From the NCBI GenBank assembly GCA_964016885.1, contig OZ024752.1, forward strand, positions 23,064,001-23,128,000: a DNA stretch of 64,000 nucleotides, read 5' to 3'. This stretch comes from Eledone cirrhosa. Lineage: Eukaryota. Position 1 is the stretch's first letter; each line of letters starts with the position of its first letter. Made by a program: the position numbers and the translations under genes. Positions 1 through 22,734 of the stretch are shown piece by piece. The notes under the pieces are model-generated. The model saw only the letters and a program-made list of their open reading frames with translations, had not been told where the DNA came from and made no database searches.

Positions 1-3000
1 CTTCACAACACCTCACCACACCGCACCACCCTGCACCACACCACACCACACCACCCCACACCACACCAACCACTGCACACCACACCAAAATACACCACAC
101 TACACTACACCGCACCACACCACTCCACACCACACTACACAACACCACACTACACCACACCACACCACATCAGACCACACGCCACTGCACCACAATACAC
201 TACACTACACTACACTACACTACACTACACTACACTACACCACACCACACTACACCACAGCACACTGCACCACAGCACACCACACCAAACCACATCACAC
301 AACACCACACCACACCACAGCACACCACACTACACCACACCAACCACACCACACCAACCACACCACACCACACCACACCACACTACCACATCACCACTAC
401 ACCACACAACTCAAGAAGAACACTACACCACACCACATCGCACACCACACCACACTACACCACACCACACAAACACCACACTACACCACACCACACCACA
501 ACACACCACACTACACCACACCACACTACACCACACCACACTACACTACACTACACCACACTACACTGCACTACACTACACCACACTACACTACACCACA
601 CTACAATACACCACACCACACCACCCCGCACCACACTACACTACACCATACCACACAATATTACACCACATCACACCACACTACACTACACCACACTACA
701 CTACACAACACTACACCACATTACACCACACTACATCACACTAGACTACAGCACACCAGACCACACCACACCACACCACACCACACTGGACCACTCGACA
801 CTACACCACACCACACAACACCGCATCACACTACACCACACCACACCACATCACAGCACATCACAGCACACTACACTACACCACACTACACTACACTACA
901 CTACAGCACACCACACCACACCATACTACACTACACCACACCTCACCACACCACACCACACTACACCACACCACAACACAGCACACTACACCACAGCACA
1001 CCACAGCACACCACAACACAACCCAACACACCGCACTACACCACACTACACCACACCAAACCACACCACACCACACCACACCACAACACACCACAACACA
1101 CCACACCACGCTACACCACAGCACACCACACTACACCAACCACACTACACCACACTACACCACACGAAACTACACCACACCACACCACACTACAGCACAC
1201 TACACCACACCACATCACATCACAGCACATCACAACACACTACACTACACCACACTACACTACACTACACTACAGCACACCACACCTCACCACACCACAA
1301 CACTACAACCACACCACACTACACCACACCACACCACACTACACCACAACACACCACACCACACTAAACCTCACAACACCACACTACACCACACCACCCT
1401 GCACCACACCGGACATTACCACCCCATACCACACTACACCCGCCTCTATACAACACTACACCACACTACACCACACTACACCACACCACACTACACTACA
1501 CCACACCACACTACACCACACTACCCTACACGACACTACACCACACCCCACCACACTACACCACAACACACTACACCACACTACACCGTACCACACTACA
1601 CCACAGCACAGCACAGCACACCACACGACACCACACGACACCACACGACACCACACGTACTACACATACAGCACATAACACCACACCATACCTCACCCCA
1701 TCGCATTACACCGCACTACACCACATCACACCAAACTACACCAACCACACCACGCCACACTACATCACACCACACCACACTAGACCACACCACACCACAC
1801 GACACTACACCACACCACACCATACCACACCACCCCATACTACACTACACCACACCACACCACACTACACCACACCACACCACACTACAGCACACTACAG
1901 CACACCACACCACATAACAGCACATCACAGCACACTACACCACACCACACCACACTACACTACAGCACACCACACAACACCACACTACACTACACCACAC
2001 CGCACCATACTTCACCACACTACACTACACCACACTACACCATAGCACACCACACTACATCACACCACACTATACCACCCAACGCTACACTACACCACAC
2101 TACACCACACCACACTACAAAACAACACACCAGAACACACCACAACACACCACACCATTCCACACTGCACCACAGCACACCACAACACACTACAACACAC
2201 CACAAAACAACACAACACACCACACCACATTACACCACACCACAGTACACTACACCACAGCACAGCACGGCACACCACACGACACGACACCACACATACC
2301 ACACATACAGCACATTACACCTCACCATACCACACCCCATCGCATTACACCACGCTACAACAAAAAACACCACACTACACCAACCACACTACACCACACT
2401 ACACCAAACTACACCACACCACACCACACTACAGCACACTACACCACACCATATCACATCACAGCACATCACAGCACACTACACTACACCACACCACACT
2501 ACACTACACTACACTACACTACACTACAGCACACTATACTACACTACACTACACTACACTACAGCACACCACACTACACCACACCACACTACACTACACT
2601 ACACTACACTACAACACACCACCTCTCACCACACCACCACACTACAACCACACCACACTACACCACACTACACTACACCACACCACACTACACCACACCA
2701 GATCACACCACACTAAACCTCACAACACCACACTACACCACACCACACCACACCCCACCACATTACACCACAACACACCACAGCACGCCACACCACCCCA
2801 ACCACACCACACTACACCACACTACCCCACACAACACTACACCACAGCACACCACACCCCACCACACTACACCACAACACAACACACCACAGCATGCCAC
2901 ACCACCCCAACCACACCACGTAACACCACACTATACCAAACTCTACACCACACTACATGACACCACACTACACCACACTACACCACACCACACCACACCA

Positions 3001-6000
3001 CACTACACCACACCACAACACACCACAACACACCACACAACACTACACCGTACCACACTACACCACAGCACAGCACAGCACACCACACGACACCACACGT
3101 ACCACACATACAGCACATAACACCTCAGCATATCACACCCCATCGCACTACACCACATCACACCACACTACACCAACCACACCACGCCACACTACATTAC
3201 ACCACACTACACTACACCACACCACACCACACCACACCACACCACCCCATACCACACTACACCACACCACACCACACTACACCACACCACACCACACTAC
3301 AGCACACTACACCACACCACACCACACCACATCACAGCACATCACAGCACACTACACTACACCACACCACACCACACCACACTACAGCACACTACACCAC
3401 ACCACACCACACCACATCACAGCACATCACAGCACACTACACTACACCACACCACACTACACTACACTACAGCACACCACACCACACCACACCACACTAC
3501 ACTACACCACACCGCACCATACTTCACCACACTACACTACACCACACTACACCATAGCACACCACACTACACCACACCACACTATACCACCCAACGCTAC
3601 ACTACAGCACACTACACCACACCACACCACACCACATCACAGCACATCACAGCACACTACACTACACTACAGCACACCACACCACACCACACTACACTAC
3701 ACCACACCGCACCATACTTCACCACACCTCACCACACCACAACACCACAACCACACCACACTACACCACACAACACTACACCATACCACATCATAAAATA
3801 CCTCACCATACCACACCACACTATACCACACCGTACCACACCACACTACACCACACCTTACAACACTTCACTACACCACACTACACCACACCACACTTCA
3901 CCACACTACACCATACCACACTACACTACACCACACCGCACCACACCACACTACACCACACCACACCACACTACATTACACTACACTACACTGCACCATA
4001 CAACACGACACAACACTATACTACACCACACTACACCGCACTACACCACACCACACTACACCACACTACACCACACTACATCACACTACAACACAGCATG
4101 CCACACCACACTACACCACAACACATCACAGCACACTCCACTAAACCACACCATACTATTTTACACCACACACACACCACACCACACCACACTACACAAC
4201 ACCACACCACACCACACCACACTACACCACACCACATCACATCAGACCACACCACATTACACCACACACTACACCACACCCCACACCACACCACAATACA
4301 CTACACTACACCACACTACTCTACACCAAACTACACGATACCACACGACACCACACTACACCACACCACACCACACCACACCACACCACACCACACCATA
4401 CCACACTACACTACACTAAACCACACGACACAACACCACACTACACCACAACACACTACAACACACTACAACACACTACACCACACTACACCACACCACA
4501 CAACCTCACACTACACCACACTACACCACACTACAGCACACTACTGTACACTACACCACACTACACTACACCCCATACACCACACTACACTACACCACAC
4601 TACACTACACCACACCACACTACTCTACACAACACCACACTACACTACAGCCCACTACACCACACTACACTACACCACACTACACAACACCACACTACAC
4701 CACAACACACTACAACACACTACAACAGACTACACCACACTACACCACACACACACAACATCACACTACACTACACTACACTACACCACACTACACCACA
4801 CTACAGCACACTACTCTACACTACACCCCATACACCACACTACACTACACCACAATACACTACACCACACCACACCACACTACTCTACACAACACCACAC
4901 TACACTACAGCCCACTACACCACACTACACTACACCACACTACATCGCACTACACAACACTACACTACACCATATCACACCACACCACACTACAACACCC
5001 TGCACCACACCATGCTACACTACAACACACTACAGCACACTACACTGCACTACAATAGACTACACCACACCGCACAACACCACACCACACAACTCCATAC
5101 TACACCACACTACACCACACTACACTACACCACACTACACTACACTACACTACACCACACTACACTACACCACACTACAGCTCACTACACTACACCACAC
5201 TACACCACACTACACCACACCACACTACACCAAACTACACCACACCACACCACACTATACTAAACCACACCACACCACACCACTCACCACCACACCATTC
5301 TACTCCACACCACACTACACCATACGACACACACTACACCATACCACACCACACCACTCTATACCATATGACACAACACCACACCACACTACAGTAAACC
5401 ACACCACACCACACTACACCACATTACACCACACTACACGACAGCACATTACACCACACCACACTACACGACATCACACCACACTACACCACACCACACT
5501 ACACTACACTGCACGACATTACACCATACCACACCACACGACACGACACTACACCACAATACACCACACTAGACCACACCACACTATACCACACTACACC
5601 AAACTACAGTACACTACACCATACTACACCACACCACACCACACTATACCACTCTACACCACATCACAATACACCACACCACACTACACCACACCACACC
5701 ACACTACACCACACCACAGTACACTACACCACAGCACAGCACGGCACACCACACGACACGACACCACACATACCACACATACAGCACATTACACCTCACC
5801 ATACCACACCCCATCGCATTACACCACGCTACACCACATCACACCACACTACACCAACCACACTACACCACACTACACCACACCAAACTACACCACACCA
5901 CACCACACTACAGCACACTACACCACACCATATCACATCACAGCACATCACAGCACACTACACTACACCACACCACACTACACTACACTACACTACACTA

Positions 6001-9000
6001 CACTACAGCACACTATACTACACTACACTACAGCACACCACACTACACCACACCACACTACACTACACTACACTACACTACAACACACCACCTCTCACCA
6101 CACCACCACACTACAACCACACCACACTACACCACGCTACACTACACCACACCACACTACACCACACCAGATCACACCACACTAAACCTCACAACACCAC
6201 ACTACACCACACCACACCACACCCCACCACATTACACCACAACACACCACAGCACGCCACACCACCCCAACCACACCACACTACACCACACTACCCCACA
6301 CAACACTACACCACAGCACACCACACCCCACCACACTACACCACAACACAACACACCACAGCACGCCACACCACCCCAACCACACCACGTAACACCACAC
6401 TATACCAAACTCTACACCACACTACATGACACCACACTACACCACACTACACCACACCAGACCACACCACACTACACCACACCACAACACACCACAACAC
6501 ACCACACAACACTACACCGTACCACACTACACCACAGCACAGCACAGCACACCACACGACACCACACGTACCACACATACAGCACATAACACCTCAGCAT
6601 ATCACACCCCATCGCACTACACCACATCACACCACACTACACCAACCACACCACGATCACACCACACCACACTACACCACACCACACCACACCACACCAC
6701 CCCATACCACACTACACCACACCACACCACACTACACCACACCACACCACACTACAGCACACTACACCACACCACACCACACCACATCACAGCACATCAC
6801 AGCACACTACACTACACCACACCACACCACACCACACTACAGCACACTACACCACACCACACCACACCACATCACAGCACATCACAGCACACTACACTAC
6901 ACTACACCACACTACACTACACTACAGCACACCACACCACACCACACCACACCACATCACAGCACATCACAGCACACTACACTACACCACACCACACCAC
7001 ACCACACTACAGCACACTACACCACACCACACCACACCACATCACAGCACATCACAGCACACTACACTACACCACACCACACTACACTACACTACAGCAC
7101 ACCACACCACACCACACCACACTACACTACACCACACCGCACCATACTTCACCACACTACACTACACCACACTACACCATAGCACACCACACTACACCAC
7201 ACCACACTATACCACCCAACGCTACACTACAGCACACTACACCACACCACACCACACCACATCACTGCACACTACACTACACCACACCACACTTCACTAC
7301 ACTACACTACAGCACACCACACCACACCACACTACACTACACCACACCGCACCATACTTCACCACACCTCACCACACCACAACACCACAACCACACCACA
7401 CTACACCACACAACACTACACCATACCACATCATAAAATACCTCACCATACCACACCACACTATACCACACCGTACCACACCACACTACACCACACCTTA
7501 CAACACTTCACTACACCACACTACACCACACCACACTTCACCACACTACACCATACCACACTACACTACACAACACCGCACCACACCACACTACACCACA
7601 CCACACCACACTACATTACACTACACTACACTGCACCATACAACACGACACAACACTATACTACACCACACTACACCGCACTACACCACACCACACTACA
7701 CCACACTACACCACACTACATCACACTACAACACAGCATGCCACACCACACTACACCACAACACATCACAGCACACTCCACTAAACCACACCATACTATT
7801 TTACACCACACACACACCACACCACACCACACTACACAACACCACACCACACCACACCACACTACACCACACCACATCACATCAGACCACACCACATTAC
7901 ACCACACACTACACCACACCCCACACCACACCACAATACACTACACTACACCACACTACTCTACACCAAACTACACGATACCACACGACACCACACTACA
8001 CCACACCACACCACACCACACCACACTACACCATACCACACTACACTACACTAAACCACACGACACAACACCACACTACACCACAACACACTACAACACA
8101 CTACAACACACTACACCACACTACACCACACCACACAACCTCACACTACACCACACTACACCACACTACAGCACACTACTGTACACTACACCACACTACA
8201 CTACACCCCATACACCACACTACACTACACCACACCACACCACACCACACCACACTACTCTACACAACACCACACTACACTACAGCCCACTACACCACAC
8301 TACACTACACCACACTACACAACACCACACTACACCACAACACACTATAACACACTACAACAGACTACACCACACTACACCACACACACACAACATCACA
8401 CTACACCACACTACACTACACCACACTACACCACACTACAGCACACTACTCTACACTACACCACACTACACTACACCCCATACACCACACTACACTACAC
8501 CACAATACACTACACCACACCACACCACACCACACTACTCTACACAACACCACACTACACTACAGCCCACTACACCACACTACACTACACCACACTACAT
8601 CGCACTACACAACACTACACTACACCATATCACACCACACCACACTACAACACCCTGCACCACACCATGCTACACTACAACACACTACAGCACACTACAC
8701 TGCACTACAATAGACTACACCACACCGCACAACACCACACCACACAACTCCATACTACACCACACTACACCACACTACACTACACCACACTACACTACAC
8801 TACACTACACCACACTACACTACACCACACTACAGCTCACTACACTACACCACACTACACCACACTACACCACACCACACTACACCAAACTACACCACAC
8901 CACACCACACTATACTAAACCACACCACACCACACCACTCACCACCACACCATTCTACTCCACACCACACTACACCATACGACACACACTACACCATACC

Positions 9001-9424
9001 ACACCACACCACTCTATACCATATGACACAACACCACACCACACTACAGTAAACCACACCACACCACACTACACCACATTACACCACACTACACGACAGC
9101 ACATTACACCACACCACACTACACGACATCACACCACACTACACCACACCACACTACACTACACTGCACGACATTACACCATACCACACCACACGACACG
9201 ACACTACACCACAATACACCACACTAGACCACACCACACTATACCACACTACACCAAACTACAGTACACTACACCATACTACACCACACCACACCACACT
9301 ATACCACTCTACACCACATCACAATACACCACACCACACTACACCACACCACACCACACTACACCACACTACACCACACCAGACCACACTAAACCTCACC
9401 ACACAACACTACACCACACCACAC
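1..9424. repeat. Degenerate pentanucleotide satellite (ACCAC/ACTAC)n, extends beyond the left window edge
   Basis: Continuous 5-bp periodicity of CCACA/CTACA units with variants (GCACA, TCACA, ACACA). Almost no G on the + strand. Ends abruptly at ...acactattag (~9424). Confidence 0.97.
2235..9365. repeat. Tandem higher-order duplication (~3.5-3.65 kb unit, 2 copies) inside the pentamer array
   Basis: Rare markers recur in the same order: catgacaccac at ~2956/6425, tcataaaatacctc at 3791/7431, catgctacac at 5011/8667. ORF track pairs 2957/6426, 4098/7738 and 5012/8667. Confidence 0.9.
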
Positions 9425-10020
9425 TATTAGTAGATGATTGTTAGATGAAATAAGAAGAATAATTGATTTACTTTATACATAAAAAGGTTTACTTCACTTC
9501 AGTAAAAAAGAACAATAAACAAGTTACCACGAGTCGCGAAAGTTGACGATGTTATTTTGTTGATGATTCATGAGGCTGGTGTAGTCCGAGACCAGGAGAG
9601 AGAGAGAGAGTAATGGCCTGTGGTTGATTGCCTCGAGGGATCGCTGACGCATGAACCGTCCACGCCGGAAAGGATGGTGAACTAGAATTTGACTTTTAGG
9701 TGTTAACTCAATCATGGCATTATTGTTTTCATCAAAAGACCCATCAAGAATACAACCTGTCAGCTATACTATGATTGTTGCAAAGTATAAATCGAACAGG
9801 CCTAAGATTTAATACATTCTACTCATACCCATCTCATTTTTTATTTGTTGTCTAGGACTACATTATTTAATGTATTTTTGGCCTTTCTAAGACTAATTTT
9901 TATGGAGAATGCAGCTGCCATTTCTAGCAGGTCAACTGAGGATATAGAGGCTCCCTCGGTGATTGACGTCGGTTTTCTTGTCAGTCTGGACCAGCATAAC
10001 TCGTAGTATCGTAACCATGT

Positions 10021-10240
10021 TTAATGTCTCGTATCTGATAGATTTAGTGCGGGTTTTAAATTATATATTTTCAGTTTTCTTGTAGAAGTCTTCTCATGTT
10101 GCCAATCGATAGAGATACCTGTATGTGATACTGGTATATGTATGTCAGGGGTGGTTAAAGCTTTTCTGAATGGGGGAGCAGCACATTTGGCCAATTTAGT
10201 TGTAGTGATTAGTTTAGCAGTTATTATCAAATATCAATCA
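10021..10240 (-). mobile_element. Possible decayed Penelope-like GIY-YIG C-terminal remnant
   Basis: Minus strand has aac-taa-att-ggc-caa (N*IGQ, like YIGQT), then HIPVSH and ...IYNLKPALN, resembling the 'P.LN' end of PLE endonucleases. Heavily degraded. Confidence 0.3.
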
Positions 10241-10525
10241 AGATATAAAAAACTTTGATATGCGATAAACACTGTTCAAGGCGTGGTCAAATCTCGCTAC
10301 ACGTTTATCATCATTGTCTTTGGTGGCAACTTCCAATAATGGTTTGTCCCAGAGGCGAGAAAACTCAGATTTGGTTTCGAATCTTCGCCAGTAAAACATA
10401 ATAGTATTCCGTTATAATAGCATGTTAACGAACCATTTTGCTCGGGTCTACTGCTGGGTCTCCTGTCGAATGGTTTTGTCTGTAAAATCTGCCCAGCGAT
10501 TCATTCCTGAGACATTGAGCTCGAT

Positions 10526-10647
10526 GGATCTCGCTTGGAGATCCAGCTGGATCAACTGGAAACTGTTGCTTCTGACAGGACCAGCTGGAAGGAGTGTTTG
10601 AGGAGTCCGCCTCCACGACTTTCTCAAGAATAAGTGGCGAAGAAGAA
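10526..10647 (+). mobile_element. RTE-clade LINE 3' end fragment
   Basis: Frame reads GSRLEIQLDQLETVASDRTSWKECLRSPPPRLSQE* (stop 10631-10633). It resembles the C-terminus of Expander/Rex3-type RTE ORFs (W.RLGI....L..VA..R..W...L..LPPR) and is followed by a short (GAA)n tail. Confidence 0.65.
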
Positions 10648-11366
10648 CAATCTTAGGCCTGTTCGATTTATACTAAACAACAACAAACAAACAACAACAA
10701 CAACCAAGATATCAATTAAAAGACAAAATGAAAATCGATCCTTCGAAAATATTCCAAGTACAAGAATGATAATGACAAGGTCATCGATAATAATTAGTAC
10801 ATTGAAGACGATTAAAATCTAACACGAACAAACAGACAGTATAATGAAGTCTCAGAGACGTTACATAACACTTAACATCTAAGTCAACGGGGCATAGCGG
10901 ACATTATATGCAAACCATATTCAATTCGATAACCCAATTCACACGTTATTTTCTCTACATAATGTTATAAAAGCTTTCGTAATAAACAAAAGTAACAAGA
11001 AACCAACGTCAAAAACAAAACAATCCCAACCACAGTAGACTAGATGCAACATGAATATTCATCCTCCCCCACTCCCTTCCTCTTTCTCCCTCTCTCTCTC
11101 TCTCTCTCTTTCTCCCTCTCTCATTTCTTACCCCTCTTTCTCCCCCTCTTACTTTCTCCCTATCTCATTTCTTACATCTCTTTCTTCCCCTGCCTCTCCC
11201 TCTTTCTTTCTCCCTCTCTCTCTCTCTTCCTCCCCCCTCACCCTTCCTCCGTCTCCAAAACAGTAATATTACCACACACACCACAAGGTGATACAGGTGT
11301 CTCTAGCGATGCAACCATACCACTCTACACTAGCAATGAAATATCAATGAAAACATAAAATCACAC

Positions 11367-11563
11367 TATCGGTAGAGAATCCTACACCATAGAGTTATGG
11401 TCCTTTGCGTTTTGAGTTCAAATCCCGCCAAGGTTATCTTTGCCTTTCATCCTTACATGGTCGATAAAATAAAGTACCAGTAATGTACAAGGGTCGATAT
11501 AATCGACTTTTCCTTTCCCTTCAAATTGCTGGCCTTGTGTCAAATGTAGATATAATTACTATT
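11367..11563 (+). mobile_element. tRNA-derived SINE copy A
   Basis: B-box-like GAGTTCAAATCC, then the conserved body ctttgcctttcatcc..ggtcgataaaataaagtaccagt and tail aattgctggccttgtg, shared with neighbouring copies. Confidence 0.8.
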
Positions 11564-11574
11564 TGTAACATATT

Positions 11575-11712
11575 AAGGTGGTGGTTTGGCAGAACCATTA
11601 GGCCACCAGATTAAAAGAGTTCTGAGTTTAAATGACGCCCAGGTCAACTTTGCTTATCATCCTTCTGCGGTCGATGAAATCATTTGCCAATAAAGTAGTG
11701 GGTCGATATTAT
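11575..11712 (+). mobile_element. tRNA-derived SINE copy B
   Basis: ggtggtggtttggcagaacc head, ttctgagtttaaat B-box, aggtcaactttgcttatcatcc..ggtcgatgaaat body. Confidence 0.75.
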
Positions 11713-11718
11713 TAACAT

Positions 11719-11902
11719 TTGGCAGTATCGGTAGAGGGTCGGACGCCATGCTTTGACGCATTGAGTTACGGCCCTTGCCATTCTGAGTTCAAATCCCGCC
11801 GAGGTTAACTTTGCATTTCATCCTTACGGGGTCGATAAAATGAAGTAGCAGTAATACACTGAGGTAATTGCTGGCCTTGTGCCAAAATTAGAAACAATTA
11901 TT
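11719..11902 (+). mobile_element. tRNA-derived SINE copy C
   Basis: tggcagtatcggtagagggtcggac head (A-box-like), ttctgagttcaaatcccgccgaggtt B-box, same body and tail as copy A. Confidence 0.8.
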
Positions 11903-12108
11903 AACATTCCTCTACATTTCTACTGGCCAAACCTTCAGCAACCTCTTCAGTTACCACTTGGAACCTAGATACCTACGTCTTGTCACTGCTCTATTTACCA
12001 CCCTGTCAGCCAGCGGATTACCCACAGACCTTGAATATTTGGATATATATATATATATATATGTAAAAGAAACCAAAGAACGCTTACATACTCAAACAGT
12101 TTTTATTT

Positions 12109-12153
12109 GCTTACAATGTTTCATCCATACCGTTGGGTAGGAATTATCAGAGC
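12109..12153 (-). ncRNA. Degenerate type I hammerhead-like motif
   Basis: Minus strand: GCT-CTGATAA-t-tcctacc-caac-ggtatgga-t-GAAA-cattg-TA-AGC. Stem I GCT/AGC and stems II and III are present. G8 is changed to A. Confidence 0.5.
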
Positions 12154-12442
12154 TTAATAAACATAGTGCTGAGTATAAGCTCTACCAAGCTTAGTCACAC
12201 GAACAATCGGAATACAATAGAGGGCAAATATGGGGAGTTCGGATATGGCGAGTAAGGAGAGAGTACATGCTGGTGTTGTTAAGCACCACAGCTAAATGCT
12301 AGGGCTCAAGCAGATCTCACAAGATGCAAATACAATTGATGGCACACATAATAAAAAAATACAAACAATGGTTAAAACATAATAAAAAAGCAAAAGGAAG
12401 ATAATATAAAGAGATAAAAAGTGAATAAAAACACAGCGTCTG

Positions 12443-12444
<2 letters not shown>

Positions 12445-12523
<79 letters not shown>

Positions 12524-12530
12524 CTCTCTC
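12445..12530. repeat. (CT)n/(TCTA)n microsatellite
   Basis: Direct reading of the sequence. Confidence 0.95.
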
Positions 12531-12699
12531 CCGCTATCCCCCTCTTTTAGTCTGTCTGTTTCTTTCACTCTCACTCTTTCTTTTTCATTTTTACAGATAT
12601 AGAGATTTTTTCTGTGCAAAGTCGTACCTATAGTCAGTTTTATCGATTTTTTACCTGGACAAAGAGGGAGTCGATCACGCAATGTCGTGCCTACTTGCC

Positions 12700-12799
12700 C
12701 TGATAAATTTGTGGTTGATTACAAGTAAAATGTTGAAAATCGGTCTTGCGGATCAAATGTTGCTGCGGAACAGACACACACACACAGACAGATATTTTC

Positions 12800-12868
<69 letters not shown>
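12700..12868 (-). mobile_element. Helitron-like non-autonomous element end followed by (TA)n
   Basis: Minus strand reads tatataaaaatgaaaatatctgtctgtgtgtgtgtgtctgttcc..accgattttcaacatttt, the TATA..(CTGT)n..CCGATTTT layout typical of non-autonomous Helitron-type repeats. (TA)n at ~12805-12868. Confidence 0.45.
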
Positions 12869-12869
<1 letters not shown>

Positions 12870-12947
12870 CGGCGATGAATTAGTTTTGCGAGGTTTTTGA
12901 TATGAAATCGTGTGTCGAAACAAATATTGTTATACTTGGGAAGGGTT

Positions 12948-13160
12948 TATTAACTTAATATGTGTGTAAAGTTTCATCAGGATCGGATCACTGGTTTAGA
13001 CGCCAACTGGTTACACACAGACAGACAGAAATTGCCATTTATATATATATATATAATATATATATATAAATGGCAATTTCTGTCTGTCTGTGTGTAACCA
13101 GTTGGCGTCTAAGCCAGTGATTCGATCCTGATGAAACTTTACACATATGTTAAGTTAATA
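12948..13160. mobile_element. 93-bp inverted repeat pair (two Helitron-like ends head-to-head) around (TA)n
   Basis: Arms 12948-13040 and 13068-13160 are reverse complements with 4 mismatches. Each reads aaatggcaatttctgtctgtctgtgtgt..gatcctgatgaaactttacac outward from the TA spacer. Confidence 0.85.
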
Positions 13161-13317
13161 TTCAGAAACAGGACTAGCTAATTGGATTTCAATAAAAATC
13201 AACAATGGAACCCCTGGGGACATTAAACCCTCCCTCCCACTACTCCCCTTCCTCCTCCCATACCTCAGTCCTCCAAAACGAGGCAACAACTTATTTGTTT
13301 TTTGTTCTTCATTCTGT

Positions 13318-13323
<6 letters not shown>

Positions 13324-13389
<66 letters not shown>
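13324..13389. repeat. (GA)n microsatellite
   Basis: Direct reading of the sequence. Confidence 0.95.
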
Positions 13390-13393
<4 letters not shown>

Positions 13394-14659
13394 TGAGAGA
13401 GAGGATAACCGAGAGAGAGGGTGGATGAGAGAGAGAAAGAGAGCCAAAGCAAGAGAGAGAGAGAGGGGGGATTAGGGAGGAGAGAGAAAGAAAACAGAAA
13501 AATGATATCATAGTTCGATAACTAACTTTTATTTATTCATTAAACGCTTCTTAACTCACTCCTTTCTTAACGTTACTTCTCTTTCTCTCTCTCTTTCACA
13601 AAAGTCCTAATGAGACTGTGTGTGTATATGAGCGTGTGTGTGTGTGTGTACGTGCGTGCGTGTGCGTCTCGGAGTTCTTAAATTAGAGACAAGTGTGTGT
13701 GTGTGAGTGTGTTTATCATCGTACTTAAGTTAGAGACATATATCCCAGTCTACTGTCTCATGTATGTATATATATATGAAGCAAAAAGGAAAGGTTGTAT
13801 GTGACACCTCTATCTACTAGAAATATTAGCAAAATCCATTTCAAATCACAGCGAACAGTCTTACACACACAAACACACACACATACACGTGTGCTTATCT
13901 ATGTCACGGAAGCCACTATAACTGTTGGTGTACTTAAAAGAAATAGAAAACAAATCTCCCTCAAACAAGATCCTACTGCCATAGAGATAAAAGTTGGTGA
14001 AAGCTACAGTGTAAAAAATTTAATTAACCCAGGCTCTGCCAAGGAGCTTAAACTCTCCAAATATTAGTCACTCTCCGACAGGTTTGTTGTTGAGCCCATA
14101 GCAACTCACTACCATCGGCACAGAGTTGGCTACCCGCAGGGGTGAGCCTCGCAAGCCGGAATAGATTTTCCAGCGCGCCTCTCTCACCATCCTCTATTCC
14201 GACCGCCGGGGCTGTTGGGCGGCCAGCGCTGGGCCCCCATTTGCTCATAATAGTGAGTGATGGGGAGATTGGGATAGATGGAGATGGAGCTTGGTTCCTG
14301 GTGTATATGTATATATTTACCACACTTACACACATTTAAATAAACTTTCCTGAATTACAGAAATGGGTAAGTAAATTCTTCATTCATTCATAAACCAATG
14401 GCAAATTTATTATTTTATTTTGTTTTATTTATGCTTTTTAAAATAGCCTTCACACTTTGTTTGAATTTCAGACGTTCTGATTGTGCAAAAAAAAAAAAAA
14501 AGAAGGATAAATAAAATCTAAATTTATTTTTTTGGTTATCCCCTTTTCATTGACAACATACCTAATGATTCTTCCAAGTGCGAAGTATTATATACGCTGA
14601 TTGTAATAGGGAACAGTATTTAAAAAATCAGCACTGGACAAAACTAACAATATTTTTTA

Positions 14660-16000
14660 TCAAAATAGAATGCAGACCCAGCAACTGGGAGACAAATCTG
14701 CAAATAGCTTGCGTAAGCTCATGCAGCGCTCACGTAATGGAGAGATTGCATGCTTTCCAACAGACAAATCTGGCAGAATGTCGGTTGACAGTCTGTCAAA
14801 CTACACCCAGGCAATGCAACCCACATCACTAACACAAGAGAAGTAACACCACAAGAGCATGATGATAGGGTGAAAACCCTCAATGCCCATATGATGATGT
14901 GGACAAACATAATGCAGCCCAATAAAAGGACTGCCAACAACTTCCATACCCATCCATTGACGTGGATTTTGCTGTGGAGAAATGCGTAGAAATGATCAGT
15001 GAGAGCAATGTTGAATTCCGTGGGATTGATACCAGTGAGCTGGAACTCCTACTTAAACTTACTTATAATAATGATTATCTAGATACGTATGACCTTAGCA
15101 ACCTCTGCTCCACAAGGCCAGCAAGAGGCAGACCACCTACCATTACCTCAATTGCCAAGAAAACCCACACAGAAAGATGGAACTGGTGGACCAGAGCCAT
15201 GCGGACCCCCGAAAACCATGATGAACTAAAGAAAATGATTGCACATGCAGTGGGGGCCAGTATAAAACTAACCCTTAAGGAACATATGTTCAAATTTAAT
15301 GGAAAAACATATGTAAAGACAATGTAAAGATAAGAATATAGTGTACATAGGTGAGACAGCTCGTAGTATAGGCGAACCATTAAATGAACACTAGCGAGAG
15401 CTTCAAGATAGAAAAGAATCATCTGTACTCCACCAACATGCTGAAATAGAACATAAGGGCAAATTAGAGAACATAGAAATAAAAATAAAATCTACACACC
15501 GAAAAGACGCAATGTTTAGACAAATCACAGATTCAATAAACATAAATGAACTCCAACCAAAATTAAATAGAAAACATGAATGGAATAGCAACATCACAAC
15601 TTACAATTAAGGACAAAATGAAAACACACACATAGAACAAACAACCAACTAGTAACATGTAAATAAACAAATAAATAAACAAATAAAAGCACACACGGAC
15701 ACTCGGATGTAACACATGCGCAAACTAAGCACACAACACACGCAAAAACAAGATGGCGTAGGACAGAACAAAGGAGAGGCACAAAACAAAGAAAAGAATC
15801 CCCAGTCACTGAAGAAGTCACAGAATGTGTGACGAAAGAACTTTGACAATATATGAACAACCGTCCGGTTGTGGAACCAACCAACCAACCGGAAATTTAC
15901 AAATTTCTTAAATTTATAAATTTAATTTATAATAAATTGGAATGAAAGCAACTGGTGCGTGTGTTTCTTATTGGCAACATGACCCTCCCAAAGTATAACA
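14660..16000 (+). mobile_element. Internally deleted, frameshifted Penelope-like retroelement (RT + GIY-YIG endonuclease + 3' terminal region)
   Basis: Motifs in order: ..EIACFPTDKSGRMSVDS (DKG/DKS motif, ~14760); YPSIDVDFAVEK (RT 'LYPSI', ~14947); LKEHMFKFNGKTY (RT 'NYF.FNG..Y'); VYIGETARSIGEPLNEH (GIY-YIG, ~15341); SVLHQHAEIEH; FRQITDSININELQPKLNRKHEW. Then a hammerhead motif, and the element ends at (TA)n from ~16001. The RT YxDD region is missing. Confidence 0.85.
15805..15847 (+). ncRNA. Minimal type I hammerhead ribozyme in the PLE 3' region
   Basis: GTCA-CTGAAGA-A-GTCACA-gaatg-TGTGAC-GAAA-G-aa-C-T-T-TGAC. Stem I GTCA/TGAC, 6-bp stem II, very short stem III, canonical core. Confidence 0.75.
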
Positions 16001-16827
16001 ATATATATATATATATATATATATGAGTGTGTGTGTGTGATTGTAGACGCCTGACCATTTTTGTAGACCTCACCATTGTTTGCTTGGAATAAATAAACCT
16101 TAAAAATCAGGCGTGCCTCTCAGTGTAAGTTTCTCTACCGAAACTTAGCTTGAATTTTTTTCTGCCTTTGTTACTCTAATTATAGTTTTTAAAGAATTCT
16201 CTTTTCTTTAAATCCATCAACCAATGACCTCCACCCATCACAATCAACGCCCTCTCCTACCACCAGAAAAGGTATAAATACCTCCATACTACTTTGACAG
16301 TCGGTTTCCTAATGTTTTCTCCCGAATGAAACAGTTCTAGTCCTGTAGAAGCCATTTCTATATTAAATATTTGTACTCTGCTTTGTATTGAGTACCTTAC
16401 TGTGGTTACCCCCGATTGAACCCGGGATAAACTTATCTCTCTCTCTCTATATATATATATAAGAATTGTCCATATAAGAATTGGTCTATAGAATTCAGTG
16501 ACTGCTTGGTAACATTCTATATGGCAAATGCTTAATAAGGGGATTTTAGAACTGTGCAAATATTTGAGGTAGTGGCCCTGATCTAGTGTTTGATATTCTT
16601 TCAGTCAGGGAAGCATTTTCAATAGCTATTTTGCGAACGTTTTAAGTCTTTTAACCATCATTTACGGTGTAGTACTGTGTTAAATCAGATTTAGAATTAC
16701 ACAAGTAGAGATCAGCTATACATTAAAATAATCACTGGTCTATCGTATGTAAAACTTTACGTCTAACATCCCAAAAGAGAAACAGTTCATTCGATGTGGA
16801 AGCACATTACCCGTCTTTAACGTCTTT

Positions 16828-16935
16828 GGTCAATCTGAGGCTTTAGTAAGAGACACTTGTACATGGCGCACAGTGAGATCAAACCTAGAACCACGTGATC
16901 ATAAACGCTTTAAAATGCACGGCTATGCGTGCACC
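16828..16935 (-). mobile_element. SINE family 2 fragment
   Basis: Reverse complement contains gtggttctaggtttgatctcactgtgcgccatgtacaagtgtctcttactaaagcctc, similar to cttgggcaagtgtctttaccatagcctc at ~17281. Confidence 0.55.
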
Positions 16936-16966
16936 TGAAACAATATTTATTCTCTCTATTTGTTTT

Positions 16967-17100
16967 AAGGCAGTGAATTGTTAGTCTTTACAACGATAGA
17001 ATGTTTTGCGGCATTCGCCTCGACTCTCTGAGTTCAGATCACACCGAGGTCAACTTTATCTTTCATCCATTCGAGGTCGATTAAAAAAAATACTTGGGTC
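16967..17100 (+). mobile_element. tRNA-derived SINE copy D
   Basis: ctctgagttcagatcacaccgaggtcaactttatctttcatcc..ggtcgattaaaa matches copies A-C. Confidence 0.7.
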
Positions 17101-17264
17101 GGTTCTTCCTCTATATCTCTTTCTCACTTCCATTCTCTCAGTCTCTCTGTCCTTCACTTGAAGAAATCTGCTGTATTCAGACCTGGAGAGGATTGAGCGC
17201 CGCCAGGTTTATATATGCCCGAACAACACCATATATCAATACGGCCCCCGTCACTCCCCCAAGA

Positions 17265-17525
17265 GGCCACTGAGTACCATCTTGGGCAAGTGTCTTTACC
17301 ATAGCCTCGGATGAAACCAAGCCGTGTGAGTGAAATTTGATAGACAGAAACTGTGTGGAAGCCCGTCGGAAGAATTGTGTTTGTAATGCAGGGGTTCAAC
17401 CGTGTCACATATTTTGTCAGGCCGATTCGAACTTTGGAATTATGATGAGGGTCCACATTTCTGTAGAATACTCCTTCGACATTCAGTTGATCGAACAATG
17501 GAACACTCATCGCCGCAATCGACGG
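17265..17525 (+). mobile_element. SINE family 2 body
   Basis: cttgggcaagtgtc..gtgagtgaaatttgatagacagaaactgtgtggaagccc. The downstream part recurs, diverged, at ~20925-21035. Confidence 0.6.
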
Positions 17526-17689
17526 AGAATACATTACTTTGAAAGGCATTATGTATTTTTATACCTGTATTTCATTTATGTGACTACTATTGAAGTCTTT
17601 GTTTTAGTTTGTTGTCTAACCGATATTCGGTCAGGGCGTCTAGCTGTCGAAACAGCCGGAGCTCAGCCGTCGGGGTCCTGACTCTTTTC

Positions 17690-17723
<34 letters not shown>

Positions 17724-17845
17724 GTAGTTCCACAACAGTTAGTTGACCATACCGAGAACAAATGTTTTATCTTATACGGACTTACTTGTTTGGAGAGCAG
17801 ATTTAAGTCAACTCCGAACGATCTTTTAAGTCCCTCAGGGATACC

Positions 17846-17883
17846 TCCTTGATAATGGGCTTTTAAACCCGAAAATATTTGGG
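17846..17883 (+). ncRNA. Hammerhead-like motif with U3-A8 core variant
   Basis: TCC-TTGATAA-t-GGGcttttaaaCCC-GAAA-ATAT-T-T-GGG. Palindromic stem III (AATATT). C3-G8 is replaced by U3-A8. Stem I is only 3 bp. Confidence 0.45.
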
Positions 17884-18057
17884 ATTATCAAATTTACTAA
17901 GGTTAGATTCTTTGTTATCTTAGCAATCTTGATTTTTCTTTCTTATGCATTGCATGGTTTTCAAAATTATTTGTGTTTCATATACATATATATATGTATG
18001 TATTCCTAGATTGTATATCTCCTCATTAGTGTCTCTTATTTAATACGTGCGTATATT

Positions 18058-18062
<5 letters not shown>

Positions 18063-18120
<58 letters not shown>

Positions 18121-18273
18121 GTATGTATGTATATATATGTAGTATATATATGTATATATAATTATTTATGTATATGTATAATATATATATGTATGTATGT
18201 ATATATATATGTAGTATATATATGTATATATAATTATTTATGTATATGTATAATATATATATACATATATATA

Positions 18274-18337
<64 letters not shown>

Positions 18338-18459
18338 ATAGATATGTATGTATGTATAAATATATTCATATGTATATGTATATATATATATATATATATA
18401 TGCATATGCATACATATATATATGCATATTGCATACATATATATATATATATATATACA

Positions 18460-18498
<39 letters not shown>

Positions 18499-18620
18499 CA
18501 TATGTATGTATAAATATATTCATATGTATATGTATATATATATATATATATATGCATATTGCATACATATATGTATATATATAGTATATATATATATACA
18601 TATATATATACATATACATA
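18063..18620. repeat. Compound (TA)n-rich microsatellite with short internal duplications
   Basis: Direct reading; e.g. tataaatatattcatatgtatatg occurs twice. Confidence 0.95.
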
Positions 18621-18951
18621 CACTTTTATGTTGCACATCTCATTAGTGTGTCTATTGTTTAGTATGTGTATACAGACGTTCACCTTCTCTGCAGTGAAAG
18701 GCAACATAATAACAACGACAGAAAGTAGTCAGCCTTAGATGTTATCGATCTAGTGATACCTGTTGAACAAGTTCTTCTCTTCATCCTGTCATTATTGATT
18801 TATTTATCAATGTAAATGATTTAATAAAAGACGACACTTCGATGAATCATCTACGCTTTTTGGAAACTATTTGTATTTATTTATGTTTGTGTATAATTTC
18901 TTCATTGTTTGTGTGTATATATACTATATATATTATATATATTATATATAT

Positions 18952-19096
18952 TAGATGATTAATTGGTAGAGTCGATAGAGCGTCGGATTAAATAAATGTT
19001 CTGGTCTACTCTGTTCTCATTTCAAATCACGTCGAGGTTAACGTTGCGTTCTATAGTTTCGGGGACGATAAATAGAATCAAGTAATGAGGTCGATT
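18952..19096 (+). mobile_element. tRNA-derived SINE copy E (diverged)
   Basis: ggtagagtcgatagagcgtcggat head, ttcaaatcacgtcgaggttaacgttgc..ttcggggacgataaat body. Confidence 0.65.
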
Positions 19097-19234
19097 CTCT
19101 CTCACTCTCTGTTGTTGAGGAAGCAACAACAAATATCAGCCTGGGGCATATCAATGATTCGAAACAACAGGAGTAATCTTTATTACTTCTTCATGTTTTT
19201 CTGGGGTGGGGGGTGGGGTTGTGTTCAACTTGTA

Positions 19235-19294
19235 GCTGTCTGATGAGGTTTTAACTCTTTCATAAATGGTTATCACCGAAATGTATATAACAGC
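19235..19294 (+). ncRNA. Type I hammerhead ribozyme
   Basis: GCTGT-CTGATGA-GGT..taac..gtta..ACC-GAAA-TGTATA-T-A-ACAGC. 5-bp stem I GCTGT/ACAGC, canonical core, near-palindromic stem III, AUA cleavage triplet. Confidence 0.8.
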
Positions 19295-19421
19295 GATTAT
19301 AGTTTAGTTTTCAACTAGCAATAAGCACACCTCGGATACTCCTCATTGGCTATGGTACCGCCTCTGCGGTAAAGTTATGAATAAATTAAGTAAATTATAA
19401 GTTGTTGACTTGTACTTCATG

Positions 19422-19485
<64 letters not shown>

Positions 19486-19491
<6 letters not shown>

Positions 19492-19531
19492 ACTTTAGGA
19501 GGGTCATGCTGCCAATAAAAACACGCGCACC
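19486..19531 (-). mobile_element. Second copy of the PLE 3' terminus
   Basis: Reverse complement ggtgcgcgtgtttttattggcagcatgaccctcctaaagtataaca vs 15954-16000 ggtgcgtgtgtttcttattggcaacatgaccctcccaaagtataaca. It also runs into a microsatellite. Confidence 0.8.
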
Positions 19532-19600
19532 CTACACAATCTTGTTTTCTGTTTCAACACACTTTTTCAGGTAAGAAATCTTGCAAAACAAATTCAAAAA

Positions 19601-19633
<33 letters not shown>

Positions 19634-19636
<3 letters not shown>

Positions 19637-19725
19637 AAATAGGATTTCGCTTCAAGCATTTTTGGAGATACGAAATATTTATACATATTGTATAAAGCTA
19701 TGCTTGAAGCGAAATCCTATTTCTT
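19634..19725. repeat. Perfect 26-bp inverted repeat with 40-bp spacer
   Basis: aagaaataggatttcgcttcaagcat (19634-19659) and atgcttgaagcgaaatcctatttctt (19700-19725). Confidence 0.9.
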
Positions 19726-19975
19726 TTCTATTATAAGTTGAGCCAACTTATGCAGCTTCATATGCAAATAAGATTAATCACCTCATTTACACAGACGAGA
19801 AAACTATGTATTCTCGCCTGTCTTCTAGTCGAGCAGTCGCAAGCGGTGGGAGGGACCGTCCTGACCATGGCCAGTTAAGCCTGAAATGTCCCCCTTTCTT
19901 CTGCTGGACATCACCAGAGGGCGTTGCATAGCTACGGCTTCCTAAAACCGTATTTCTTTGGAGATACGAAATATT

Positions 19976-20062
<87 letters not shown>

Positions 20063-20069
<7 letters not shown>

Positions 20070-20918
20070 ATACATTAACAGAGAAAGCTTTAAGCTATAC
20101 TCTGACTGGCTTCCATCTCACTCAACAAACATTAGGATATACCTTAGTATAATCCCAATTTTACGTTTGGGGTGCTAACTATATGTATTTTGCGGATAGC
20201 CAGTTGTATTATTTTATATGAGACATAATTAAAATATATCTCCCTTTCCAAACAATTGTTTCATTATAAGTTTTCTACAAGTTGGGAAAAATGTGTCCCG
20301 GTTATGTAGAAGCCTGCACATATTCAGTAGGAATATATGCAGGTGGGCACTTATAAATCATCAGTGGATGCCCGTCAAACATCGATATAAAAAAAAACTT
20401 TCTTACCGATATCCAATCCAATGTTAGCGATGATCCCTCTCCGTATCAGAATGACCGCCAAATTTGAAATTCCAGCAGTCTCATAATGAGAAATTTCACA
20501 CTGTCATCAAGCGGAAAGGGGAGGTCATCGCGAAACATAAGAAAGTAAAATAATATACACGCGGGTCAATTAATTTTTTCAACAATTTTAACCTTGCGTG
20601 TGAAGAACTCAATTAGATTTTAAAAAAATAAATATATGCATGTATTATTTATACACGCATATAGGTATTTTCTTAGGCTGAAAACAGAGATATGATACCA
20701 GAATAACAATCAATATTTCATAGTAATAATAAATACGGAAAGTTACACTTAAAAGGTATCTGGAAATATTCATCTCTGGCCAAATCAAGAGTATAATATT
20801 TAATACATTAACAGAGAAAGCTTTAAGCTATACTCTGACTGGCTTCCATCTCACTCAACAAACATTAGGATATACCTTAGTATAATCCCAATTTTACGTT
20901 TGGGGTGCTAACTATATG
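20063..20918 (-). mobile_element. Non-coding hammerhead-containing element with identical 123-bp direct repeats (retrozyme/PLE pLTR-like, 733-bp period)
   Basis: 20063-20185 is identical to 20796-20918 by inspection. Internal minus-strand hammerhead, no substantial internal ORF, 3' end abuts (TA)n/(CA)n. Confidence 0.7.
20247..20368 (-). ncRNA. Type I hammerhead ribozyme with branched, extended stem II
   Basis: Minus strand: TCCA-CTGATGA-t-TTATAAG-[two hairpins: cctgcatatattc/gaatatgtgcagg and ttctaca/tgtagaa]-CTTATAA-t-GAAA-CAATTG-T-T-TGGA. Palindromic stem III ACAATTGT, GUU cleavage triplet. Confidence 0.75.
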
Positions 20919-21051
20919 CATAGTTTGGATAAACAGAAACTGTGTAGAAGCTCAGTGAATGGACGGTGCATATTTTGTTACATGCTGATTCTACTTGAAG
21001 ACTACGTTAAACGTAGACATTGCTTTTGGAATACATATACTCTAACGCTAT

Positions 21052-21298
21052 AAGTTGTATCTGTATAAATACAGAGTGTGTAACTGAAACTGCAATAATG
21101 TGTATATAAATATACACATTTTTAATATGTAGATATGTTAGCATACCAAAAATACAAATTTTTCTATAAATATATTTCAATTTACAGGGAAATTCGTATT
21201 TTCTGGCGTGTTTGCATGTCTACATATTAAAAATGTGTATATTTTTATACAGATTATTGGAGACTTGGTTACACACTGTATTTATACAGATATAACTT
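21052..21298. mobile_element. ~250-bp imperfect fold-back (MITE-like palindrome)
   Basis: The left arm aagttgtatctgtataaatacag..gtgtgtaac..aatatacacatttttaatatgtaga pairs with the right arm tctacatattaaaaatgtgtatatt..gttacacac-tgtatttatacagatataactt. Confidence 0.75.
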
Positions 21299-21510
21299 GA
21301 TCATACACTTCAGCTAGCGCACTTCTTAATAATATAACTAAAGCTGTGATACAAGATGCACCGTTCTTGTAATTTGAAATGCCATCATTGTAACGCATTC
21401 TGAATTCCCCTGTGTTTAGTTTCACTAAGGACTATATTAAATGAACCGGTGCCTTTGAAATACACAGCTCATACTGATTCTTACATATCTGGTACTGTTT
21501 GTGAGTATAT

Positions 21511-21686
<176 letters not shown>

Positions 21687-22272
21687 ACCCAATACTATAA
21701 TTCAATGGATATTTAGTTTAGTTCATCGAATTACTTGAATACTCGTCGCCGACATTGACGAATGATCATTTTATACTTTCATTGATTTAACTTAGGAATG
21801 TCTGAGACTAGAGATGACAAGGTAAGGCGAGGCTAATGTATGAAAGATAAGGAGGAAAAGGAGTGGTATAGATGTGAGAGATGACGCAACACTGAGTCAG
21901 TTCCAAATATGATAGTATATTTAACAGATGTTAATATATCGTATCGCCGTGAAACGATAAATTAGACCAACATCTAAAGATATGTATATCAGTGTCAGTA
22001 TGTCACGGTACATTATTAAATAAGAAAGTAAAACAATACTAATGTTATGTGTAGGTTGCTATTTATGTTATTTCATTCGAAGTGAGCTTCCCATCCTCCA
22101 CATGATAAAATTAAAGGTGTTCCAGCTATGACCATCCCTTAAGTAGAGTGTATCTTACAAACTACATTATATGTATGTATGAACCCGTAACTCCGAAGAG
22201 TCGTAGGAGCGCCATATTGTCACATGTTTCTAGAGCATTGTAAGACCAGGTGGAGCCCATTTATTTCATTCT

Positions 22273-22530
22273 GTGCTAGATGTACGTGTTAAGAGAGGGA
22301 CCGAGCTGTCAACTGATCACCATCTAATTATCTGCAACATGAGGCTACCTAAAGCCAAAGAAGCCCACAAGACTGGCAGATCCAGAGCGACCTGCAAGAT
22401 AAAGTGGGAAGCATTGATGGATAAGAGTGTCAGGATTAAGTATATGGATACTATGGCATCCAAATTCAGAGAACTCCCTGAGCAAACTAAGGACGTTGTT
22501 CAGCACAGTAGTTACTGTTTCAGATGAAGA
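22273..22530 (+). mobile_element. RTE-clade LINE fragment (AP-endonuclease C-terminus and linker)
   Basis: VLDVRVKRGTELSTDHHLIICNMR..IKWEAL resembles the 'VLDTRVKRGAELSTDHHLVV' motif (SDH-type catalytic His) of Expander/Rex3-type RTE elements. Confidence 0.8.
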
Positions 22531-22680
22531 AAGTAGAGAAAAAAGAAAAGAAAGAGGAAAGTAAAGAAAGAAGGAGACCATCTCTTCTCCAGGTTTAAAT
22601 ACAGCAGATTTCTTCCAGAGAAAGATAGAGAGTGAGGGCGAAGGCAGAGAGAAAGAGATGTTGAGGAAGAATCGGCCACA

Positions 22681-22734
22681 GTACTAGACTGGTACTTTTT
22701 TATGGACCTCAAATGGATGAAAGGCAAAGTTGAC
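22681..22734 (-). mobile_element. Truncated tRNA-SINE body at the satellite boundary
   Basis: Reverse complement gtcaactttgcctttcatccatttgaggtccataaaaaagtaccagtctagtac matches the body of SINE copies A-E. Confidence 0.85.

Follow-up and report, generated by a model that had tools for sequence, protein, structure and literature searches.

Why should five hammerhead ribozyme-like motifs lie within about 8 kb of the Eledone cirrhosa genome, each followed on its 3' side by a (TA)n microsatellite? The motifs are found in a 64,000-nt stretch of contig OZ024752.1 (assembly GCA_964016885.1, positions 23,064,001 to 23,128,000; hereafter the window), and comparison with other loci of the same genome showed that each marks the 3' end of its own high-copy repeat family (F1 to F5, numbered as motifs 1 to 5); three of the five are demonstrated Penelope-like elements (PLEs). 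Judging from the sequences of their ends, PLE hammerhead families very probably insert into pre-existing (TA)n by target-primed reverse transcription, for which each RNA would offer one or two fixed internal starting points downstream of its ribozyme.

Type I hammerheads were confirmed at all five positions (Table 1), each with the core of the minimal motif (CUGANGA or its U3-A8 variant, GAAA and UH), stems I and II and a short stem III. The window copy of motif 1 reads CUGAUAA, and 26 of 29 other copies read CUGANGA; the family thus has the defining core, and the window copy is decayed (G8A). Motif 2 is a minimal type I hammerhead with an additional base between A9 and stem II. The UUGAUAA core of motif 3 is common to the whole family and represents a U3-A8 covariant, not decay, as described by Cervera and de la Pena (PMC4209133; statements on published systems refer here and below to the accessible parts of the papers cited). 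Stem III is palindromic, as would suit dimeric folding, in F3, F4 and F5, and not in F1 and F2. The distances from the predicted cleavage site, after H17, to the TA tract are 49, 157, 99, 134 and 184 nt for motifs 1 to 5, the spacer of motif 4 being longer because a U4 small nuclear RNA (snRNA) fragment is inserted there. The first-pass annotation, which had read five type I hammerheads with unrelated stems in about 8 kb, each with a TA microsatellite about 50-200 bp downstream, was therefore accurate on both points.

For each window family, a first look yielded 997-2782 candidates; 40 of these were scored, and the best 30 BLAST hits, which were fetched, form the family samples. The five families show no similarity to one another at E<0.01. 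In a broader scan of the other fetched loci, with the window's own five excluded, 270 motifs fell into 18 families of at least 2 members and 21 singletons, the 18 families having a common core and differing stems. A further genome-wide family, F6, was found by the ribozyme model RF00163 alone; its 3' sequence is 75-79% alike to that of F1.

Descriptor searches covered positions 9425-22730, the sole non-satellite part of the window. A strict-core descriptor gave 3 matches, against a mean of 0.01 in 300 dinucleotide shuffles, and a relaxed-core descriptor 6, against a mean of 0.23 and a maximum of 3 in as many shuffles; the sixth match, at 20678(+), is likely due to chance. Since the descriptors were composed after inspection of the motifs, the independent test is a systematic sample of the 3.0-Gb genome, comprising 100 stretches of 10 kb (1 Mb), in which the smaller chromosomes, with 35 stretches, are under-represented. 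It contained 91 hammerhead motifs, compared with 2, 6 and 3 in three shuffles, so that the shuffle check proposed in the first-pass annotation came out in favour of its reading. Rfam microRNA matches in the window were rejected as artefacts of TA hairpins. The motifs could still be chance matches in AT-rich DNA: their stems are short, the Rfam hammerhead models scored none of the five in the window at E<=5, and motifs 1 and 3 need the relaxed core. Against the excess over shuffled sequence, the canonical core restored in family copies and the 18 families with one core and different stems, the probability of this explanation is negligible.

F1, F2 and F3 are tied to PLE coding sequence, with a reverse transcriptase (RT) ahead of a GIY-YIG endonuclease at the C terminus. 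This order was recognized by Pfam in other copies of F2 (RVT_1, 24.2 bits, under the cut-off; GIY-YIG, 22.7 bits, at the cut-off) and by translating broken copies of F3 and F1. In two F3 copies (L067 and L071), RT and GIY-YIG remnants are collinear with the hammerhead. The hammerhead and tail of one F1 copy (L131) are continuous with an open reading frame (ORF), and in a second copy (L151) an ORF of 93% identity, together with the remnant of an endonuclease, is located 3 kb upstream of the hammerhead; these links ruled out F1 as a non-coding family. All three families display the structural hallmarks of PLEs, namely a hammerhead in a pseudo-long terminal repeat (pseudo-LTR), 5' truncation, inverted 5' arms and an optional tail at one end.

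Neptune and Nematis PLEs are marked by a CX2-5CxxC linker upstream of GIY-YIG and by CCHH (PMC8557442). F2 has a CX4CxxC linker (CIDKKCIIC in L158) and F3 reads CTLANCPI/CPIC (L071, L067); by linker and CCHH motif both are of the Neptune/Nematis type, a placement by sequence motifs that takes the two clades together. The Hydra clade is defined by an RWK motif, DKT for DKG, absence of CCHH, CxxC and CxH around E and N, and a CxCX5C linker (PMC8557442). Its marks in F1 and F6 are RWR with DNT (L131), RWR with DKT (L291), and CNLC and CIH in the L151 endonuclease, without CCHH; the Hydra-type linker is decayed in L151 and intact only in a related, unlinked ORF of L141. By the RWR/DKT-type motifs and the CCHH-less endonuclease, F1 and F6 are assigned to the Hydra clade, a motif-based assignment. 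Between the Hydra-type endonuclease and the F1 hammerhead of L151 (4960-8150) lies an apparent non-coding 3' region of about 3 kb, and more than 1.4 kb of common non-coding DNA precedes the hammerhead in F6.

The first-pass annotation had named the carriers PLE or retrozyme families, to be clustered by their flanks and linked to autonomous PLEs. The linkage holds for F1, F2 and F3, and no ORF was found for F4 or F5; F5 is a retrozyme-like tandem unit, and the non-coding F4 is connected to PLEs indirectly, through a sister family with an identical stem III that is continuous with a Hydra-type ORF in L137. F4 and F5 are likely non-coding families mobilised by PLEs. The F5 unit measures 729-734 bp, has one hammerhead and a longest ATG ORF of 61 aa, and 16 of 29 copies exceed one unit. 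A non-coding tandem unit with one type I hammerhead is among the marks of a non-LTR retrozyme, beside expression as a circular RNA; the F5 unit of about 730 bp lies outside the 150-450 bp range, and we therefore term F5 retrozyme-like and do not count it as a retrozyme member. Elsewhere, head-to-tail arrays with one hammerhead per unit were seen with a 310-bp unit (L260:7013-9803, L248, L195) and with a unit of about 476 bp (L224:21-3381); from their sequence, these would be conventional-looking retrozyme arrays.

The antisense U4 fragment within F4 (74 bp; Rfam RF00015, 72.5 bits) is missing from other F4 copies, and its junction with F4 is spanned without mismatch by contigs of sequencing runs X2 and X3, which possibly derive from the same sample as the assembly. 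U4 retrocopies in the window and at L007, L013, L015, L026 and L030 end at one point, …GAAAACU, about nt 67; 2 of 7 continue into (TA)n, and 4 of 7 briefly repeat their final bases (AAAC/AAACT) at the junction. The copy at L029 is apparently full length. These ends suggest internal priming and realignment by some RT. Human truncated U4 pseudogenes are similar.

The association with (TA)n is directional. In the genome sample, where tracts of at least 5 TA units and motifs with room on both sides were counted, (TA)n was present within 250 nt downstream of 59 of 86 motifs, compared with 30 upstream and 23.5 for random positions (maximum 35 in 200 draws); the upstream count is low in part because that side covers the element body. 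With tandem arrays collapsed, the downstream count was 52 versus 23 (of 64). Within 100 nt downstream there was no excess in the sample (16/88 versus 12.7). At family level, TA was found at the 3' versus the 5' boundary in 18 versus 2 of 30 loci for F1, 25 versus 4 of 26 for F2, 16 versus 6 of 27 for F3, 8 versus 3 of 22 for F4, 27 versus 19 of 29 for F5 and 29 versus 6 of 30 for the ribozyme-found F6; these counts include the copy in the window for F1, F2, F4 and F5, and part of the 5' boundaries, in F1 and in long F6, do not represent true ends. Before counting, we excluded 7 hits to U4 alone, 5 rows that were duplicates or came from one and the same locus, 3 F2 rows at the locus edge and 1 F3 row that was unmapped. 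The TA tract starts mostly at +44 or about +146 in the 30 F6 loci. Viewed from the tracts, a hammerhead-family end adjoins at least 122 of the 757 TA tracts in the sample on one or both sides, and 132 of 1008 complex tract flanks match such an end in sense and 74 in antisense, against 43 and 28 of 1008 control 45-mers; these figures replace a count of 273/1499, discarded as inflated by low-complexity matches. Thus, the suggestion of the first-pass annotation that such families target or prime on (TA)n is supported, and the directional excess survived the control for local tract density by randomised positions.

Copies reach 49-184 nt beyond the cleavage site and retain intact motifs; the copied template was therefore uncut there, as in PAc, the Poseidon element of Anolis (Frangieh et al. 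2024, PMC11167929). The 3' ends are determined not by ribozyme cleavage but by fixed sites further downstream. Among F1 copies, 22 of 29 end at ACATATA (site 1) and 6 at the tail end; 17 of 28 F2 copies end at one ATAT and 11 near the tail end, and 25 of 28 F5 copies at one ATAT, with comparable AT runs ending at only 1-6% of tail positions. In inverted insertions, the two arms ended at different sites in 14/16 F1, 17/17 F6, 15/16 F2 and 10/11 F3 pairs, or 56/60 (pairs classed as 'other' omitted; p 9e-13 against 50:50). In PAc, two internal RT starts are equivalent to the tail, both strands are cut and extended, and the ribozyme is dispensable in vitro (PMC11167929). The pairing of sites puts numbers on the known 'tail at one end' and fits the two starts, two-strand cutting and predicted dimer of PAc. 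The (TA)n target likely pre-exists insertion: TA is present at the outer left side of 21/29 F5 loci and 18/28 bounded F1 loci, an F3 copy (L073) inserted at a plain, non-microsatellite AAAT has no TA added, and empty copies of the L045 site already contain TA. The empty-site search revealed no convincing target-site duplications at its two usable loci.

The insertion mechanism that we consider very probable would connect the families, the coding links of F1, F2 and F3, the fixed ends, the TA flanks and the end pairing as follows. The GIY-YIG endonuclease would cleave both strands of a TA tract. Of the resulting DNA ends, one would use the near site for priming and its partner the far ('tail') site, and some families may have pairing between the TA at the cut and 4-5 nt of AU at the near site. 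Early stops of synthesis would account for pieces that are short, 5'-truncated and inverted. In the template, the ribozyme of the end that is copied stays uncleaved; its predicted role is to cut tandem transcripts, and in F5 it would release unit-length, possibly circular RNA. Several observations weigh against this mechanism or parts of it. The ends of F3 show no clear microhomology and those of F6 only 2 nt; PAc starts at a site without homology to the cut DNA (PMC11167929), and pairing is therefore not general; AT at the start site could have been left over from an ancestral junction. The ends of F4 are scattered, with just the 8 of 22 adjoining TA, and the ORF search upstream of F4 and F5 found none. 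Furthermore, the F1-F5 queries stopped at the junction of the window copy, which was counted except for F3, and the empty-site evidence comes from two loci only.

An element might instead make its own (TA)n, with the RT repeatedly copying a short AU stretch in a telomerase-like manner before the element itself. The predominance of TA at 3' boundaries, the AU runs at start sites, the (AC)n runs between F1 ends and (AT)n described below, and the short reiterations at some junctions, such as (AAAT)1-4 at F1 site 2, would all agree with this. We nevertheless consider it improbable, because many non-inverted insertions have TA at both outer sides (21/29 for F5, 10/17 for F1), L073 inserted without TA, the empty copies of L045 already contain it, F3 and F6 are TA-flanked without a usable AU template, and different families adjoin the two sides of tract 17693-17720. 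If the association were passive, either TA would be so dense that every element lies near a tract, and there are indeed 2039 tracts per Mb (about 2 per kb), or AT-rich ends would seed TA after insertion, as retroelement ends are known to seed microsatellites (PMC3812793). This is very improbable, given that the downstream count exceeds every random draw, that tract starts are base-exact and family-specific, as in F6, and that sense flank matches outnumber those of control 45-mers. Ribozyme self-cleavage could also set the RT start, the motifs belonging to independent retrozyme-type RNAs and not to PLE ends; F5 and the two sampled tandem families (310 and about 476 bp), with one hammerhead per unit and no ORF, point in this direction. 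However, the copies that extend past the cleavage site with intact motifs, the PLE ORFs joined to F1, F2 and F3, and the dispensability of the PAc ribozyme leave it hardly credible.

The junctions of F1 have a further peculiarity. Among 73 exact site-1 ends genome-wide, 41 pass directly to (AT)n, 10 have a short AC run and 22 carry (AC)>=5. Of the latter, 20 go on into (AT)n, against 149 of the 597 sampled AC tracts; on their far side, the bounded (AC)n copies were flanked by TA in 12/17 cases and by AC in 1/17. Long AC runs are commoner at F1 (22/73) than at comparable junctions (20/179; p 0.0006) and were not seen at F2 (0/29), F5 (0/29) or F6 (0/30) junctions. One reading is that the PLE RT stutters at initiation by telomerase-like repeat addition and thereby builds microsatellite DNA: on the F1 RNA UUUU-ACAUAUA, a TA primer would copy AC, slip back two bases via G-U wobble and repeat, which would leave (AC)5-63 between the F1 end and the (AT)n target. 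We regard this as tentative and rather doubtful. The runs could also stem from later DNA-polymerase slippage, microsatellites being known to arise at retroelement ends (PMC3812793), or from cutting at AT/AC borders of existing compound tracts. AT-AC-AT compounds are frequent (85/168), and AC and AT junction copies showed no difference in age (91.05 versus 91.23% identity, p 0.81, in a test of low power). The AC-over-GT polarity before AT tracts (20 versus 5) agrees with both stutter and slippage and was therefore not used as evidence. If stuttering is true, PLEs, whose ends with a hammerhead number about 200,000 or more, would be a major source of compound microsatellites.

Table 1. Remnants of hammerhead-bearing families in the window
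Feature	Position	Strand	Remarks
F1, 3' end of 5'-truncated PLE, Hydra clade by motifs	12063..12444	-	ends at site 1 (UUUUAC-AUAUA) against (AT)n 12043-12062
Motif 1 hammerhead, type I, G8A-decayed	12109..12153	-	descriptor and family alignment
Hammerhead-less 3' tail, F2-related family	12869..12946	-	adjoins (TA)n 12805-12868
F2, PLE with internal deletion	14640..16000	+	ends at site 1 (ACA-AUAU) against (AT)n 16001-16024
F2 parts: RT remnant; GIY-YIG remnant; then 3' untranslated region	~14640-15313; ~15315-15610	+	
Motif 2 hammerhead, minimal type I	15805..15847	+	descriptor and family alignment
F7, another abundant family	16191..16435	+	ends at (TC)n(TA)n 16436-16462; overlooked in the first-pass annotation
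F7 decayed hammerhead	about 16304-16352	+	CUGAUGA intact in other copies
Probable additional hammerhead family, 3' half (GAAAC, stem III, stem I strand)	17640..17692	+	adjoins (TA)n 17693-17720; complete core in only 1/71 matches
3' half, another hammerhead family	17721..17775	-	opposite side of (TA)n 17693-17720; whole motif in L201, L189, L265
F3, 3' end of PLE	17805..17985	+	ends at imperfect TA tract ~17980-17995
F3 hammerhead (motif 3)	17846-17883	+	U3-A8 core, palindromic AAUAUU stem III
F4, short non-coding element	19110..19423	+	hammerhead (motif 4) 19235-19294, palindromic stem III; ends at (TA)n 19424-19450
U4 snRNA retrocopy, 3'-truncated, within F4	19301..19374	-	TTAT duplication at both flanks
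Inverted pair of F2-like 3' ends, hammerhead-less	19489..19602	.	(TG)n adjoins the site-1 arm, (TA)n 19603-19634 the site-2 arm
Further family with decayed hammerhead about 19856-19889 and inverted arm 19635-19725	19635..19978	+	
F5, non-coding tandem unit of ~730 bp, 1.17 units	20067..20921	-	20067-20197 repeated at 20791-20921; ends at (AT)n 20033-20066
F5 hammerhead (motif 5)	20247-20368	-	long branched stem II; palindromic AACAAUUGUU stem III

Besides the five motifs, which exist as the first-pass annotation counted them, the same interval contains at least 4 further decayed or half hammerheads that it had overlooked. Its idea that the apparently unique DNA between microsatellites is debris of such elements was borne out: hammerhead-family remnants, drawn as segments by hand, occupy 3446 of 7048 non-microsatellite bases (~49%) in 12044-20368. 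Extrapolated from the 1-Mb sample, the unusual density of about 87 motifs per Mb corresponds to about 2.6e5 motifs per genome, or about 2e5 with tandem arrays collapsed. PLE debris, left by at least 18 families that bear hammerheads, thus makes up much of this genome's short 'unique' sequence between microsatellites. How PLEs insert is still little understood, and the base-exact ends yield rules for it, namely two starts per RNA and one per DNA end; two further rules are offered, a short pairing with AU that concerns some families and, as a possibility, the addition of repeats by an RT whose ancestor is also that of telomerase.

The rest of the window is of other kinds. Positions 4-9424 form a degenerate (CACCA)n array of 9.4 kb with extreme strand skew, and 22731-64000 a 27-bp satellite of about 1534 copies, in which a higher-order period of about 1.9 kb is seen near 54-62 kb. 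A near-perfect inverted repeat at 12968-13140 is centred on a TA tract and has no second copy among the fetched loci. Copies of very abundant short interspersed elements (up to 150 hits per Mb), which presumably resemble those of octopuses, lie at 11355-11923 and 16944-17244. The inverted-repeat element at 21081-21270, perhaps a miniature inverted-repeat transposable element, has many copies in sequencing runs X1-X3.

PLE hammerheads (PMC4209133), the (TA)n bias of Hydra, Neptune and Naiad (PMC8557442) and two-site 'tails' are already published. Among cephalopods, 235 Rfam hammerheads were reported for the giant squid genome (PMC6962438), and the accessible text of an O. vulgaris repeat study does not contain the word 'ribozyme' (PMC13282606). 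Hammerheads of octopus PLEs, microhomology at the junctions and the addition of repeats by a PLE RT were the subject of no paper in our literature search, whose scope did not extend to subscription journals, Repbase or the supplements of PMC8557442, in which Hydra and Naiad families, perhaps octopus ones among them, are listed; nor did the literature so covered mention AT microhomology where synthesis starts or the (AC)n runs that separate motif-1 ends from (AT)n.

The motifs resemble the hammerheads of PLE pseudo-LTRs (PMC4209133) in their type I fold, the tiny, often palindromic stem III, the additional base between A9 and stem II and the U3-A8 core, as well as in the many unrelated families per genome and the mostly single motifs in truncated copies. 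They differ in the 80-nt branched insert in stem II of F5; in addition, the accessible part of that paper names no cephalopod and does not discuss (TA)n flanks, whereas here about 87 motifs per Mb stand above background. F1 and F6 are similar to Hydra PLEs (Craig et al. 2021, PMC8557442) in the RWR/DKT-type motifs, the CCHH-less endonuclease, canonical hammerheads and insertion at (TA)n. Unlike Hydra elements, which measure less than 3 kb overall, F1 has an apparent non-coding 3' region of about 3 kb, and its (AC)n junction runs have no counterpart in the accessible account of Hydra. F2 and F3 share with Neptune/Nematis the RT, the CX4CxxC linker, GIY-YIG with CCHH and the microsatellite bias (PMC8557442).

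As in PAc (PMC11167929), two internal starts downstream of the hammerhead define an optional tail, and uncleaved RNA is the template. PAc, however, cleaves ATT within AT-rich DNA and initiates without homology, whereas the targets here are (TA)n, the tails reach about 100 nt, and F1, F2 and F5 have 4-5 nt of AU matching the target. F5 differs from metazoan non-LTR retrozymes (PMC7229834) in its unit of about 730 bp, as against 150-450 bp, in mostly comprising 0.8-1.5 units and not long arrays, and in its base-exact 3' end at (TA)n. What it has in common with them is a non-coding tandem organization with one type I hammerhead per unit, copies of more than one unit and PLE-like ends (PMC7229834; bioRxiv 10.64898/2026.07.22.740005).

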